A program made the position numbers and the translations under genes. Positions 41,365-51,412 of a DNA stretch of 64,000 nucleotides are shown here, piece by piece. The notes beneath the pieces were generated by a model. The model was not told the origin of the DNA and made no database searches. It was given only the letters and a program-made list of their open reading frames with translations. The DNA comes from Escherichia phage HY03. The DNA is taken from sequence record NC_031047.1. One strand, 5' to 3'. The first letter of the stretch is position 1, and each line of letters opens with the position of its first letter.

Positions 41365-44064
<2,700 letters not shown>

Positions 44065-44351: not shown

Positions 44352-44630
44352 ATACAAATCCGACTTTGATGTTAATATTCACCGTGGTACATTTAGAGCC
44401 TTTACGTCGGTAAAGATGCTGGCAGCCGGGAGGCTGCCATTGAATTATTCAAAAAAGATTTTATACGTCGAATTAAATCCGGAGAAATAACTAAAGAACA
44501 TTTAGAGCCTTTACGTGGAATGAGGCTAGGATGCACATGTAAACCAAAGCCGTGTCATGGTGATATAATAGCTCATATAGTTAACCGATTGTTTAAAGAC
44601 GATTTTCAAGTTGAGGACTTATGCAATTAA
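44305..44630 (+). pseudogene. small Cys-rich protein gene split across two reading frames; candidate pseudogene or recoding site
   Basis: N-terminal frame 44305..44490 and C-terminal frame 44397..44630 (no start codon) together resemble one small protein; the frame switch lies in the first copy of a 19-nt direct repeat. Confidence 0.4.
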
Positions 44631-46885
44631 TTAATGTTATCAAAAGTAGTGGTGTTTCTCAGAGCTTTGACCCGCAAAAAATTATTAAAGTTTTATCTTG
44701 GGCAGCTGAAGGAACATCAGTAGATCCTTATGAATTATATGAAAATATTAAATCTTATCTCCGTGATGGAATGACAACTGATGATATTCAGACTATTGTC
44801 ATTAAGGCTGCTGCAAATTCTATTTCAGTTGAAGAGCCTGATTACCAATATGTAGCCGCTCGCTGTTTAATGTTTGCTCTTCGTAAGCATGTTTATGGGC
44901 AGTATGAACCACGTTCATTTATTGACCATATTTCTTATTGTGTAAATGCAGGTAAATATGACCCTGAATTGTTGTCAAAATATTCTGCAGAAGAAATTAC
45001 ATTTTTAGAATCAAAAATTAAGCACGAGCGGGATATGGAATTTACTTATTCCGGGGCGATGCAATTAAAAGAAAAATATCTAGTTAAAGATAAAACCACT
45101 GGTCAAATTTATGAAACTCCGCAGTTTGCATTTATGACTATTGGAATGGCACTGCATCAAGATGAACCTGTTGATAGATTAAAACATGTTATCCGTTTTT
45201 ATGAAGCAGTATCTACTCGACAGATTTCATTGCCAACTCCTATTATGGCTGGTTGTCGTACTCCTACTCGACAGTTCAGTTCATGCGTTGTTATTGAGGC
45301 AGGAGATTCGCTGAAGTCTATCAATAAGGCTTCTGCTTCAATTGTTGAATATATCTCCAAACGAGCTGGAATCGGCATTAACGTTGGTATGATTCGTGCC
45401 GAAGGTTCTAAGATTGGCATGGGTGAAGTACGCCATACTGGTGTTATTCCTTTTTGGAAACATTTTCAGACTGCTGTTAAATCATGCTCACAGGGTGGAA
45501 TTCGTGGCGGCGCTGCTACTGCTTATTATCCTATTTGGCATTTGGAAGTTGAAAATCTTCTCGTTTTGAAAAATAACAAAGGCGTAGAAGAAAACCGCAT
45601 CCGTCATATGGATTATAGTGTTCAGCTGAATGATTTGATGATGGAACGATTCGGAAAGAATGATTATATTACTTTGTTCAGTCCGCATGAAATGGGTGGC
45701 GAGCTTTATTATTCTTATTTTAAAGACCAAGACCGTTTCCGTGAATTATACGAAGCAGCAGAAAAAGACCCTAATATTCGTAAAAAGCGTATTAAAGCCC
45801 GTGAACTATTTGAATTGCTCATGACTGAACGTTCAGGGACAGCAAGGATTTATGTACAGTTCATTGATAATACGAATAACTATACTCCGTTTATTCGTGA
45901 AAAGGCACCTATTCGTCAGAGTAACTTGTGCTGTGAAATTGCTATTCCAACAAATGATGTGAATAGCCCTGATGCTGAAATTGGATTGTGTACTCTCTCT
46001 GCATTCGTACTGGATAATTTTGACTGGCAAGACCAAGATAAAATTAATGAATTGGCAGAAGTCCAAGTTCGTGCTCTTGATAATCTTTTGGATTACCAAG
46101 GATATCCAGTTCCTGAAGCAGAAAAAGCTAAAAAGCGTCGTAACCTCGGTGTAGGTGTTACCAACTATGCAGCTTGGCTGGCAAGTAACTTTGCTTCTTA
46201 TGAAGATGCTAACGATTTAACACATGAACTATTTGAGAGATTACAGTATGGACTCATTAAAGCATCCATTAAGCTCGCCAAAGAAAAAGGACCTTGCGAA
46301 TATTATTCAGACACTCGTTGGTCTCGAGGCGAATTACCTATCGACTGGTACAATAAAAAGATTGACCAAATCGCAGCTCCAAAATACGTTTGTGACTGGT
46401 CGGCGCTGCGGGAAGACCTTAAGCTCTTTGGCATCCGTAATAGCACATTATCAGCACTTATGCCATGTGAGTCATCTTCCCAAGTTTCTAACAGTACAAA
46501 TGGTATCGAGCCTCCACGTGGACCAGTCTCTGTTAAAGAATCAAAAGAGGGCTCCTTTAATCAAGTCGTGCCCAATATTGAGCATAACATAGACCTTTAC
46601 GACTATACATGGAAATTAGCTAAGAAAGGTAATAAACCTTATCTTACGCAGGTAGCTATTATGCTGAAATGGGTATGTCAATCAGCTTCAGCGAATACAT
46701 ATTATGACCCGCAGATTTTTCCAAAAGGAAAGGTTCCAATGTCTGTAATGATTGATGACCTTTTGTATTTTTGGTATTTTGGCGGAAAAAATTTCTATTA
46801 TCATAATACTCGTGATGGTTCCGGTACTGATGATTACGAAATAGAAACTCCAAAAGCCGATGATTGCGCAGCGTGTAAATTGTAA
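44621..46885 (+). CDS. nrdA: aerobic ribonucleotide reductase large subunit
   Basis: 754 aa; class Ia RNR alpha; matches recalled T4 NrdA length. Confidence 0.95.
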   Translation: MQLINVIKSSGVSQSFDPQKIIKVLSWAAEGTSVDPYELYENIKSYLRDGMTTDDIQTIVIKAAANSISVEEPDYQYVAARCLMFALRKHVYGQYEPRSFIDHISYCVNAGKYDPELLSKYSAEEITFLESKIKHERDMEFTYSGAMQLKEKYLVKDKTTGQIYETPQFAFMTIGMALHQDEPVDRLKHVIRFYEAVSTRQISLPTPIMAGCRTPTRQFSSCVVIEAGDSLKSINKASASIVEYISKRAGIGINVGMIRAEGSKIGMGEVRHTGVIPFWKHFQTAVKSCSQGGIRGGAATAYYPIWHLEVENLLVLKNNKGVEENRIRHMDYSVQLNDLMMERFGKNDYITLFSPHEMGGELYYSYFKDQDRFRELYEAAEKDPNIRKKRIKARELFELLMTERSGTARIYVQFIDNTNNYTPFIREKAPIRQSNLCCEIAIPTNDVNSPDAEIGLCTLSAFVLDNFDWQDQDKINELAEVQVRALDNLLDYQGYPVPEAEKAKKRRNLGVGVTNYAAWLASNFASYEDANDLTHELFERLQYGLIKASIKLAKEKGPCEYYSDTRWSRGELPIDWYNKKIDQIAAPKYVCDWSALREDLKLFGIRNSTLSALMPCESSSQVSNSTNGIEPPRGPVSVKESKEGSFNQVVPNIEHNIDLYDYTWKLAKKGNKPYLTQVAIMLKWVCQSASANTYYDPQIFPKGKVPMSVMIDDLLYFWYFGGKNFYYHNTRDGSGTDDYEIETPKADDCAACKL

Positions 46886-47526
46886 TGAATTATCAAAAAA
46901 TCTATAATGACCTAATTTCCCGAGCTCAGGCTCGGGAATCTTTATCAGAATATAAAGAGACACATCATATAATCCCTAGATGTATGGGAGGTTCTGATGA
47001 TAAGGAAAATTTAGTTGAATTAACAGGTAGAGAGCATTTTATAGCGCATTGGCTTTTATGTAAAATATATGACACTCCAGGATTAAAGAAAGCTTTTGGT
47101 TTAATGTGCTTGACTGGTAAAAATCGCTCATATAAAATTTCTTCTCAACTATACGAATTAGGTAGACGACGTTTGTCTGAAGCTGCTATAGGACGTGAAG
47201 TTTCTACAGAAACCAGAGAAAAGATAAGTAGAGCTCTTAAAGGAAGGAAATTTACTAAAGAGCATTTAGCTCGCATGAGAAAACCTAAAACTGAAGAAGC
47301 TAAAAAGAATATAGCTGCTGCTAAAGTCGGCGTGCTTAATCCAATGTATGGTACAATCTCTCCAACGAGAGATGTTCCTCATACTAAAGAAACTCGCGAT
47401 TTGATTTCTTTGAGAACTAAACAAGGTGCAGAGTATCCGCCGTGTCCGCATTGTGGAAAGAAAGTTAATAAAGGTAATGCTTTAAGATGGCATTATGATA
47501 AATGTAAATTTAAGGATTCTAAATGA
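46885..47526 (+). CDS. mobE: MobE free-standing HNH homing endonuclease
   Basis: 213 aa; ETHHIIPRCMGGSDDKENLV...HF HNH motif; sits between nrdA and nrdB; paralog of mobA. Confidence 0.8.
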   Translation: MNYQKIYNDLISRAQARESLSEYKETHHIIPRCMGGSDDKENLVELTGREHFIAHWLLCKIYDTPGLKKAFGLMCLTGKNRSYKISSQLYELGRRRLSEAAIGREVSTETREKISRALKGRKFTKEHLARMRKPKTEEAKKNIAAAKVGVLNPMYGTISPTRDVPHTKETRDLISLRTKQGAEYPPCPHCGKKVNKGNALRWHYDKCKFKDSK

Positions 47527-49797
47527 GTACAGTTTTTAATACATCACCTGTTAATATTTTGACTGAGCCGATGTTTTTTGGTTCTGGATTGGGTTTAGCT
47601 CGATATGATATTCAACGGCATCGAGTATTTGAAGAACTTATTGAGAAGTCTTTGTCATTTTTCTGGCGTCCTGAAGAAGTAAACTTGATGATGGATGCTG
47701 CACAATTTAACAAGCTTCCTCAGTATCAGCAGAATATTTTTACTAACAACTTGAAGTATCAATCACTTCTAGATAGCATTCAGGGTCGTGCACCGTCTGC
47801 TGTACTTATGTCATTAATTTCAGACCCAAGTCTTGATACATGGGTTGCTACATGGACTTTTAGTGAAACTATTCACAGTCGTTCATATACTCATATCATG
47901 CGAAATCTTTATACTGATCCATCGAAGGTATTTGATGAGATTGTACTAGATGAAGCTATCATGAAACGTGCTGAATCTATCGGTCGCTATTATGATGATG
48001 TTCTGACTAAAACCCGTGAATGGGAAAATGCTAAAGAATTTACAGAACTAGCTAAAGAATCTCCTGATGCTGTTTTTCGTTTAAATCGAGCTATTAAACA
48101 AGAAGCCGAAGCTAAACGAGCACTAATGAAATCTCTTTACCTTTGCCTTCATGTAATCAATGCATTGGAAGCTATTCGTTTTTATGTATCTTTCGCGTAA
48201 AATGCGCCTTTAAGCAGTAATGCTTATCGAAAACTCCTTTAATTGCTGGAAAATCCAGAAATGGAAAACTAGCAGCCAAGGTTTTGCTTGCACCTTTAAT
48301 TAGTATAATATTATAAATATGATGATTATACTTTTAAGAGGATGCACAATTGAATTATAGAAAAATTTGGATAGATGCTAACGGACCGATACCTAAAGAT
48401 TCTGATGGAAGAACGTATGAAATCCATCATAAAGATGGTAACCGTGAAAATAATGATTTAGATAATTTGATGTGTCTTTCTATACAGGAACATTATGATA
48501 TACATTTAGCTCAAAAAGATTACCAGGCATGTCACGCTATAAAGCTTAGAATGAAATATTCTCCTGAAGAAATTTCTGAATTAGCTTCTAAAGCTGCAAA
48601 ATCTAGAGAAATCCAGGTTTTTAATATCCCTGAAGTGAGAGCTAAAAATATTGCCTCTATTAAATCTAAGATAGAAAACGGTACATTTCATCTTTTAAGT
48701 GGTGAAATACAACGTAAATCTAATTTAAATCGGGTTGCATTAGGTATACATAATTTTCAACAAGCTGAGCATATTACAAAAGTTAAAGAACGTAATATTG
48801 CAGCTATAAAAGAAGGTACTCATGCATTTTGCGGTGGTAAAATGCAGTCAGAAACTCAGTCAAAACGAGTAAATGACGGTTCACATCATTTCTTATCAGA
48901 AGACCATAAGAAAAGAACATCAGCAAAAACATTAGAAATGGTTAAGAACGGGACCCATCCTGCACAAAAAGAAATCACATGTGATTTCTGTGGTCACACT
49001 GGTAAAGGTCCTGGATTTTATCTAAAACATAATGACAGATGTAAATTAAATCCAAATAGAATTCAATTGAATTGTCCATATTGTGATAAGAAAGATTTAT
49101 CACCATCAACATATAAACGATGGCACGGCGACAATTGCAAAACAAGGTTCAACGACTAGTCTTCGGACGTAGGGTCAAGCGACTCGAAATGGGGAGAATC
49201 CCTCCGGGATTGTGATATAGTCTGGACTGCATGGTAACATGCAGCAGTTCATAAGAGAACGGGTTGAGAATTAGCGAGCTCAATCGAACATACGGTACCT
49301 TTAACTTCCATAAGAACATGGAAATCATGGAAGGTAATGCCAAGATTATGAAGTTCATTGCACGTGATGAGCAGCTTCACCTTAAAGGCACCCAATATAT
49401 TATTCGTCAACTTCAATCCGGTACTGATGGCGATGAATGGGTTAAAATTGCTCAAGAGTGTGAACAAGAAGCAGTTGATATTTTCATGGAAGTTAACCGC
49501 CAAGAAAAAGATTGGGCAGTTCATTTATTTAAAGATGGTGATGTTCCTGGATTAAATACAAATAGCATGTGGAGCTTTATTGATTACTTAACTGTATCTC
49601 GTATGAAACAGTGCGGTCTTCCATGCCCAATTACCGATGCTCCGGTTAAACATCCATATCCTTGGATTCGTGAATACCTTAATTCTGATAATGTTCAATC
49701 CGCGCCACAAGAAGTAGAACTGTCATCTTACCTTGTTGCACAGATTGATAATGATGTTGATGATAAAGTTATGATGAGTTTTAAAAAATACTTTTAA
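47523..49797 (+). CDS. nrdB: aerobic ribonucleotide reductase small subunit, intron-interrupted: join(47523..48198,49295..49797)
   Basis: Junction deduced from the conserved R2 motif (...RFYVSFA-C-TFNFHKNMEIMEGNAK...); exon 1 ends at U 48198, intron ends at G 49294. Confidence 0.8.
48312..48319 (+). promoter_or_regulatory. late promoter TATAAATA inside the nrdB intron, upstream of I-TevIII
   Basis: Exact TATAAATA about 30 nt upstream of the ORF start. Confidence 0.65.
48350..49159 (+). CDS. I-TevIII: I-TevIII HNH homing endonuclease, full length (intron-encoded)
   Basis: 269 aa; EIHHKDGNRENNDLDNLMCLSIQEHYDIH HNH motif; C-terminal CxxC...CxxC zinc-finger pairs; apparent TTG start after SD GAGGA. 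Confidence 0.8.
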   Translation: MNYRKIWIDANGPIPKDSDGRTYEIHHKDGNRENNDLDNLMCLSIQEHYDIHLAQKDYQACHAIKLRMKYSPEEISELASKAAKSREIQVFNIPEVRAKNIASIKSKIENGTFHLLSGEIQRKSNLNRVALGIHNFQQAEHITKVKERNIAAIKEGTHAFCGGKMQSETQSKRVNDGSHHFLSEDHKKRTSAKTLEMVKNGTHPAQKEITCDFCGHTGKGPGFYLKHNDRCKLNPNRIQLNCPYCDKKDLSPSTYKRWHGDNCKTRFND

Positions 49798-49801
49798 GGA
49801 G

Positions 49802-49821
49802 TGGGCCGCAAGGCCCATTTT
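49802..49821 (+). terminator. hairpin TGGGCC-GCAA-GGCCCA plus T run after nrdB
   Basis: GNRA-loop hairpin immediately upstream of denA. Confidence 0.6.
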
Positions 49822-49824
49822 ATT

Positions 49825-51412
<1,588 letters not shown>

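Follow-up and report, generated by a model that had tools for sequence, protein, structure and literature searches.

The analysed window, 64,000 nucleotides of Escherichia phage HY03 (NC_031047.1), is a Tequatrovirus (T4-like phage) segment that many sequenced phages match at 96–98% identity over 24 kb. Its nrdB gene is interrupted by 1096 nucleotides that contain an endonuclease gene. The genes and features of the locus are the following.

42188-44064, td intron with I-TevI, intact, in the same window
44621-46885, nrdA
46885-47526, plus strand, mobE (T6 type, 213 aa), a free-standing HNH/NUMOD3 gene (Pfam, protein comparison)
47523-48198, plus strand, nrdB exon 1 (ORF list, joined-exon alignment to E. 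coli R2)
48199-49294, plus strand, group I (IA2-type) nrdB intron, 1096 nt (same boundaries applied to T4 and RB3)
48350-49159, plus strand, I-TevIII ORF, 269 aa, TTG start (ORF list, Pfam, RB3 alignment, exact-sequence lookup)
49295-49797, plus strand, nrdB exon 2 (ORF list, joined-exon alignment to E. coli R2)
from 49801, denA (GIY-YIG), the next gene after nrdB

The exons of nrdB

Exon 1 ends with ...TTC GCG T, and its reading frame is stopped by a TAA at 48198-48200, while exon 2 begins at 49295 with GT ACC TTT. The gene is thus interrupted between 48198 and 48199 and between 49294 and 49295, and the break falls within a codon. When the two exons were ligated in silico, the 1179 nt were in frame and encoded a 392-aa NrdB reading ...RFYVSFA-C-TFNFHKNMEIMEGNAK..., with ...EAIRFYVSFACTFNFHKNMEIMEGNAK... 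as the junction region. The joined protein could be aligned with E. coli R2 over its full length (E = 6e-126) and gap-free across the junction. The initial annotation, which had assigned the insertion beginning after U48198 and ending with G49294 to a group I intron, was exact in this respect. It had also placed the break inside the radical-site motif. The position is correct, but it is more accurate to speak of the helix that bears Glu204, Phe208, and Phe212, because the split codon corresponds in the alignment to E. coli Cys214, just after these three residues. In E. coli R2, Glu204 is an iron ligand, and Phe208 and Phe212 form the wall of the tyrosyl-radical pocket on the same helix as Cys214. 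The radical tyrosine itself lies about 90 residues upstream of the split site, within exon 1. The correct annotation of nrdB is therefore one CDS, join(47523..48198,49295..49797), and the ORF between the exons is I-TevIII with a TTG start. Many GenBank records depart from this and either divide nrdB into two genes or shorten the endonuclease to 229 aa.

The ribozyme core

Fourteen helices were assigned to the two halves of the ribozyme, which flank the endonuclease ORF.

48195-48287, plus strand, ribozyme 5' half (MFE fold and pair counts)
49137-49294, plus strand, ribozyme 3' half (Rfam match, MFE fold, and pair counts)
48195-99/48203-07, P1
48211-16/48221-26, P2
48234-39 (5' strand) and 49191-96 (3' strand), P3
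48244-49/48269-74, P4
48254-57/48262-65, P5, with a GAAA loop
48275-77 (5' strand) and 49146-48 (3' strand), P6
48281-87 (5' strand) and 49137-43 (3' strand), P6a, 7 bp
49154-58/49218-22, P7
49159-61/49166-68, P7.1
49172-76/49181-85, P7.2
49197-202/49206-11, P8
49227-33/49238-44, P9
49247-50/49257-60, P9.1
49262-68/49279-85, P9.2

The 5' splice site is marked by the wobble pair U48198.G48204 in P1, in which the G belongs to the internal guide sequence and which is invariant in four of four alleles. The 3' end of the intron reads ...ACATACG, with the terminal G49294 as omega-G. The Rfam model Intron_gpI (RF00028) matched 49004-49244 with 35.6 bits (E = 1e-6) and found only the 3' core, so that the nrdB intron did not reach the gathering score of 50. 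At the gathering threshold, the whole window gave no match at all, the td intron included. The low score arises because the ~850-nt ORF in L6a breaks the model, the 5' half of which is put on ORF sequence. Since the td intron was also missed, Rfam at the gathering level does not see phage introns that contain an ORF. The low score has a technical cause and, because the intron is nearly identical to that of T4, carries no weight against group I membership.

Because Rfam had forced its 5' half onto the ORF, we removed the ORF loop before folding. The resulting construct of 265 nt consisted of 48191-48288 joined to 49136-49302. Its MFE fold recovered 11 of the 14 helices (P1, P2, P4, P5, P6, P6a, P7.1, P7.2, P9, P9.1, and P9.2). 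P3, P8, and the P7 pseudoknot were added by hand, which gave a model with 14 helices and 74 pairs. It contains the conserved core from P3 to P9 as well as P7.1 and P7.2, the additional helices of the IA2 subgroup. The pairs were scored on four distinct alleles, represented by the window, by T4 and Tadeusz, by RB3, Bp7, and U5, and by S16. With the P3/P7 pseudoknot included, 100% of the cells were paired across the four alleles and no pair was broken. Two-sided compensatory changes were found in four pairs (two in P2 and one each in P5 and P9), and the three one-sided changes all led to G.U wobbles. When the 3' partners were slid by 1–3 columns as a control, pairing went down to 33–43%. As only four closely related alleles were available, we regard the pairing as a consistency check and do not claim it as independent proof.

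All helix substitutions separating the window from T4 preserve pairing. Laboratory T4 has the same splice sites and a ribozyme 3' half that is 100% identical, and P2 and P5 are the only helices in which the 5' halves are not the same. For the P2 stem, the sequence is AAGCA/UGCUU in the window, AAACG/CGUUU in T4 as well as in RB3, and AAGUG/CGCUU in S16. P5 reads UCCA-GAAA-UGGA in the window, compared with UCC-UUUAU-GGA in T4 and a stem with a U-rich loop in RB3. The window also differs from RB3 in having a P9 of the T4 type and in missing the extra A that RB3 has before the 3' splice site.

P6a closes the ~850-nt ORF-bearing loop (L6a). The final 23 nt of the ORF, with the stop codon TAG at 49157-59 among them, are at the same time part of the ribozyme core, where they supply J6/7, the 5' strand of P7, and the 3' strands of both P6 and P6a. 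As an alternative P6a, we considered and rejected a hairpin formed locally by AAGG...CCUU (48278-48296). The long-range helix of 7 bp (48281-87/49137-43) was preferred because it is fully complementary, changes in RB3 and S16 only to a G.U wobble, and leaves the Shine-Dalgarno (SD) hairpin described below free to form. The T4 nrdB intron has been described as self-splicing (PMC2790892), and by orthology with it, the window intron would undergo guanosine-dependent self-splicing.

The I-TevIII endonuclease

The ORF in the intron, which had been proposed as a 269-aa HNH protein at 48350-49159 with an apparent TTG start, was found exactly so. The RB3 GenBank annotation has the identical TTG start, with which the published residue numbering also agrees. 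An exact-sequence lookup identified the protein as RefSeq YP_009284233.1, 'intron-like DNA endonuclease [Escherichia phage HY03]'. Its parts are the following.

residues 4-48, HNH domain (Pfam HNH_3, E = 5e-13)
five repeats of ~22 aa each
residues 211-231 and 242-263, zinc fingers CX2CX12-13HX3C (three Cys and one His, CCHC)

The protein is identical to RB3 I-TevIII at 262 of 269 positions (97.4%), both being 269 aa long without indels. The seven substitutions are D23Y, I90V, D117S, A143T, V159A, I217T, and A265T. The two ORFs differ by 29 nucleotides, which lie in 18 synonymous and 7 non-synonymous codons. D23Y is located three residues before the catalytic His26 and is also present in phage TadeuszReichstein, and I217T lies inside zinc finger 1. 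In the RB3 enzyme, the mutations H26A, H27A, N39A, and H48A abolished cleavage and retained binding, and mutation of either C211/C214 or C242/C245 removed one zinc each and impaired binding (Robbins et al. 2007, PMC1865063). All eight of these residues (H26, H27, N39, H48, C211, C214, C242, and C245) are kept in the window. The paired CxxC zinc fingers of the initial annotation are indeed two fingers, but each one is of the CCHC type, CX2CX12-13HX3C, which is the form published for I-TevIII (PMC1865063). The RB3 enzyme was reported as weak and labile, with a low specific activity and a Kd of ~0.8 uM (PMC1865063). A Pfam match to FlgM at residues 74-120 (26.7 bits with a cut-off of 25) falls in the Lys/Ser/Ile-rich helical repeat region, and we took it as a chance match.

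If the cleavage positions of RB3 apply to the window, an intron-less allele would be cut between 48184 and 48185 and between 48182 and 48183. The T4 td intron with I-TevI provides a second known system for comparison. Like the nrdB intron, it belongs to group I, interrupts a gene of nucleotide metabolism, and has its endonuclease ORF looped out. It also has a late promoter and an SD hairpin that restrict expression to late times, and its homing site recurs in an operator-like copy (PMC2988022). The enzymes differ, in that I-TevI is a monomeric GIY-YIG enzyme cutting 23/25 nt upstream, whereas I-TevIII is a dimeric HNH enzyme cutting 14/16 bp upstream.

Predicted control of I-TevIII expression

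Four elements with a possible role in expression precede the ORF.

48282-48308, plus strand, putative I-TevIII operator, homing-site-like (20/27 match to the joined exons)
48289-48346, plus strand, SD-pairing RNA hairpin (fold, shuffles)
48312-48319, plus strand, T4 late-promoter consensus TATAAATA (sequence, orthology)
48338-48342, plus strand, Shine-Dalgarno sequence GAGGA, 7 nt upstream of the TTG

The late promoter and SD sequence had been proposed at exactly these positions and are conserved, but the promoter motif by itself is uninformative. Six phages were compared, and five of them have kept it; from the sixth, U5, this region was not recovered. In the AT-rich window, TATAAATA is not enriched (8 copies vs 9.8 expected), and the weight of the promoter therefore rests only on orthology with the mapped T4 promoter. 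Sigma-70 promoter-like sites in the window were likewise at chance (17 vs 13.8 expected) in a scan that does not model T4 middle and late promoters.

Folding of 48284-48356 gave a hairpin of -17.5 kcal/mol (z = -4.2), and none of 200 shuffles was as stable. Its 5' arm at 48289-97 pairs with 48337-41 and 48343-46 and covers four of the five SD bases. TATAAATA sits in the upper part of this hairpin. Late transcription, which would begin a few bases further downstream, would therefore give RNA without the 5' arm. In longer transcripts, a stable RNA structure hides the ribosome-binding site, and this has been described alike for I-TevI, II, and III (PMC2988022). The window thus appears to have the late module of the T4 intron ORFs, namely a late promoter inside a predicted SD-sequestering hairpin.

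The homing site in the joined exons, TTTCGCGT followed by GTACCTTTAACTTCCATAA, matches the intron at 48282-48308 in 20 of 27 positions, and only 2 of 2000 shuffles scored as high. An operator-like copy of the homing site overlapping promoters has been published (PMC2988022). The stretch in the window overlaps both a MotA-box-like TGCTT (48285-89) and TATAAT (48304-09). Judged by the consensus, these two elements, with their MotA-type spacing, may form a middle promoter. Compared with T4 and RB3, two insertions of 3 nt, TAT and ATG, flank TATAAATA, both in the apical part of the hairpin, and the first one is also found in S16. The insertions shift the late promoter by 3 bp away from the homing-site-like operator. 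Neither the SD-hiding hairpin nor the operator-like site was part of the initial annotation, which also lacked the mobE gene next to nrdB and the 23 nt that the ORF shares with the ribozyme core.

Relatives of the intron in other phages

We searched a phage collection without the HY03 genome, using 1301 bases around the intron as the query. Matches were found in 775 phage records, 83 of which covered at least 80% of the query, with identities up to 96.3%. Because of the homology to these 83 records, a chance resemblance is excluded. RB3 and its siblings matched the query at 94.9% and are annotated with 'nrdB (joined)' and 'I-TevIII: homing endonuclease'. The insertion site is common to the window, T4, RB3, S16, Bp7, and U5 (95–96% identity). 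The splice boundaries of the window delimit introns of 598 nt in T4, 1091 nt in RB3, 1089 nt in TadeuszReichstein, 1093 nt in S16 (Gelderlandvirus), 1088 nt in Bp7 (Dhakavirus), and 1083 nt in U5. In the comparison with the RB3 and T4 introns, which had been proposed as a check, the same boundaries apply.

The RB3 nrdB intron with I-TevIII was described by Eddy & Gold 1991, as cited in PMC2988022 and PMC1865063. The window shares with it the host gene, the insertion site, the ORF of 269 aa in L6a with its TTG start, late promoter, and SD sequence, and all functional residues. Apart from the helix differences, the seven substitutions, and the two 3-nt insertions described above, RB3 differs in its length, five nucleotides below the 1096 nt of the window, and in the mobE gene upstream. 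This gene is of the T6 type (213 aa) in the window and of the RB3 type in RB3 (243 aa, with another C-terminal half). HY03 RefSeq proteins for I-TevIII and MobE are identical to the window ORFs, and no difference was seen at the protein level.

As the initial annotation had stated, the T4 copy is internally deleted and the RB3 copy is intact. Alignment showed that laboratory T4 is missing one segment.

48414-48904, plus strand, segment of 491 nt missing from laboratory T4 (alignment; ends ambiguous by a few bases)

With this deletion, T4 has lost most of the HNH domain, beginning at residue 23, and the reading frame is shifted, which leaves only a 97-aa ORF from an out-of-frame ATG. RefSeq T4 accordingly carries a two-piece nrdB and a 'defective DNA endonuclease encoded by group 1A intron in nrdB, deletion in proximal half'. 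The 491-nt segment is present in 83 phage records from three genera, and the hosts of these phages include Escherichia, Shigella, Salmonella, Yersinia, and Klebsiella. With a query of 91 nt across the T4 deletion junction, ~16 records (T4 stocks, T4T, RB55, and RB59) matched at 99% identity or more. Full-length introns match the query too, over 72 of its 91 bases, and only this class of at least 99% can therefore be read as T4-type. The intron is absent from most records that match the nrdB exons, since 775 match some part of the query and ~126 match the 3' core at 95% or more.

The insertion is almost certainly an undeleted T-even nrdB group I intron of the RB3 type with an intact I-TevIII homing endonuclease gene, and none of the observations is in conflict with this reading. 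Such an intron is already known and annotated in RefSeq, and its biology was published between 1991 and 2010. The intact copy had been put forward as a mark distinguishing the phage. It does separate the phage from laboratory T4, but it is common (83 records) and implies little else. In nature, the intron is commonly found intact, and the deleted copy of T4 comes close to an oddity of the laboratory lineage (83 vs ~16 records). Beyond the correct annotation, the significance is slight, and the locus adds one data point to the existing picture.

Possible pathway of splicing and homing

Anatomy, conservation, and predicted folds come directly from the window; splicing, the timing of expression, cleavage, and homing would proceed as published for T4 and RB3. 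By orthology with T4, the intron RNA would fold into the IA2 core and excise itself, with the U.G pair at 48198 and the terminal G49294 setting the splice sites, and the nrdB transcript would again encode the 392-aa NrdB. The endonuclease ORF would be held in the loop closed by P6a, with its final codons doubling as P6a, P6, and P7. When nrdB is transcribed early or at middle times, the long RNA would bury the SD sequence of I-TevIII in the hairpin, whereas transcripts from the late promoter TATAAATA in the intron would be made without the 5' arm of the hairpin. As such late transcripts would leave the SD sequence free of that arm, I-TevIII would be made only late in infection. During a mixed infection, dimeric I-TevIII would bind intron-less nrdB through its two zinc fingers, as for RB3, and repair from the intron-bearing genome would copy the intron into the intron-less allele. 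Since the td/I-TevI intron is also intact and mobE is complete, the phage would be a dominant donor of the nrd-td region in mixed infections.

Two other readings of the locus have to be weighed. The intron might splice while its I-TevIII allele is dead or too weak, so that the intron would spread in trans through the MobE nickase, as in laboratory T4. The seven differences from the tested RB3 enzyme speak for this, including D23Y beside H26/H27 and I217T in finger 1, and the RB3 enzyme is itself of low specific activity (PMC1865063). A complete T6-type mobE also lies upstream, and inheritance of the T4 intron depended on mobE (PMC2790892). However, the ORF is of full length with eight of eight proven essential residues intact, and the excess of synonymous codons (18 vs 7) suggests purifying selection. 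Y23 occurs in another phage and is therefore a standing variant, and a cis route could coexist with the trans route through MobE. Taken together, a dead or ineffective I-TevIII seems unlikely to us.

If there were no splicing, nrdB might be a split gene encoding two polypeptides that assemble, with a free-standing HNH gene between its halves. In phage Aeh1, an nrdA split by mobE reportedly yields two such assembling polypeptides. Several GenBank records give the halves of nrdB as separate CDSs ('beta subunit (x2)'), and exon 2 is covered by an ORF that begins with TTG at 49264. The separate CDSs, however, come from gene callers unable to join exons, and the TTG ORF begins within P9.1-P9.2 and has no recognisable SD sequence. 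The break lies inside a codon. The sequences on either side of the endonuclease ORF make up a group I core that is complete, U.G site and terminal G included, and in which all positions are paired and compensatory changes occur. The near-identity to the T4 intron, described as self-splicing (PMC2790892), argues in the same direction, and an unspliced nrdB is so improbable that it hardly needs to be considered further. We therefore retain the intact, splicing intron with its own homing endonuclease, in which the enzyme activity of this allele and the share of I-TevIII, relative to MobE, in the spread of the intron are the least certain parts.

The neighbouring mobE gene

The mobE gene of the T6 type is complete and lies directly upstream of nrdB. 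Its product is identical to RefSeq YP_009284231.1 (Escherichia phage HY03), which is named 'homing endonuclease'. Relatives of MobE introduce nicks in nrdB and can thereby help the intron to spread in trans, and in T4, MobE mobilises the nrdB intron in this way (PMC2790892). MobE has a zinc finger CX2CX12HX3C of the same type as finger 2 of I-TevIII, with 11 of 23 residues identical. It is improbable, in our estimate, that the locus is more than an ordinary copy, with functional changes specific to this allele or an exchange of finger modules between MobE and I-TevIII. The remodelling of P5 with a GAAA tetraloop and the two 3-nt insertions could together have retuned ribozyme folding or the autoregulation of I-TevIII. 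The similar fingers of MobE and I-TevIII could likewise record that two HNH endonucleases with nrdB as their target, one free-standing and the other encoded in an intron, have exchanged DNA-binding modules. A terminator scan also detected a hairpin inside mobE.

Mobile elements around the nrdB intron

The td locus carries an intact I-TevI-like ORF, and the phage is therefore one with two ORF-bearing group I introns, in td and nrdB, together with the free-standing ORF mobE, all within 8 kb. The td intron was not reported by Rfam at the gathering threshold. By exact protein matches, the window comes from Escherichia phage HY03 or a phage nearly identical to it. Because the HY03 genome was absent from the phage collection used in the nucleotide searches, the best nucleotide match reached only 96.3%.

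Features of the td and nrdB regions
42188-44064, plus strand: second intron locus, td, with td halves at 42188-42739 and about 43750-44064
42868-43605, plus strand: intact I-TevI-like ORF of 245 aa between the td halves
46885-47526, plus strand: mobE, T6-type, an HNH/NUMOD3 ORF of 213 aa between nrdA and nrdB
46917-46938, plus strand: GC-rich hairpin of 9 bp, TTCCCGAGC-TCAG-GCTCGGGAA, within the 5' end of mobE
49798-49826, plus strand: GC hairpin GGGCC-GCAA-GGCCC followed by TTTTATTAT, directly 3' of the nrdB stop

At both ends mobE shares bases with its neighbours: its ATG with the nrdA stop codon, and its own stop codon with the nrdB start (ATGA). The T4 annotation divides this region between mobE (141 aa) and a second gene, nrdB.1 (83 aa), whereas in the window it forms a single reading frame. 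Since the C-terminal 83 aa of this undivided MobE are 100% identical to T4 NrdB.1, T4 nrdB.1 looks, on sequence comparison, like a detached MobE C-terminus. This tail contains a CX2CX12HX3C finger (residues 187-207) resembling the second zinc finger of I-TevIII, the HNH endonuclease encoded in the nrdB intron, with 11 of 23 residues identical. The hairpin within mobE corresponds in position to the T4 internal terminator reported by Wilson & Edgell to limit mobE transcripts. The hairpin region after nrdB overlaps possible denA starts (GTG 49801 and ATG 49826), and this hairpin could be either a terminator or an RNA structure acting on denA translation. A weak Rfam match of the latter hairpin to L20_leader (22 bits) was dismissed as meaningless.

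Variation near the splice site and the late promoter

At position 48194 (plus strand) in exon 1, 5 nt before the splice site, the window has C (TTC), whereas all six other phages compared have T (TTT). This synonymous difference is located just outside P1 and falls, within the homing site, in the region of the I-TevIII footprint. Compared with T4, RB3, TadeuszReichstein, and Bp7, two 3-nt insertions are found at 48310-48324 (plus strand), TAT 5' and ATG 3' of the late promoter TATAAATA; S16 has only the first insertion (TAT) in common with the window. With the insertions, the late promoter lies 3 bp farther from the putative homing-site-like operator, and the hairpin in which the I-TevIII SD is paired has a larger top.

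Degenerate repeats in I-TevIII

Residues ~95-210 of I-TevIII (48350-49159), which lie after the HNH domain and before the zinc fingers, form a tandem array of five degenerate repeats; the period is 21-24 aa, and each repeat ends in G-[T/S/I]-(F)-H (residues 111, 132, 156, 177, and 201). Five such motifs occurred in none of 20000 shuffles, the motif having been picked after inspection of the sequence. A borderline Pfam match to FlgM in the repeat region (residues 74-120) is probably spurious. The minimal DNA-binding region, published as starting at residue 166, overlaps this repeat array, and the first four repeats are lost in the deletion of lab T4.
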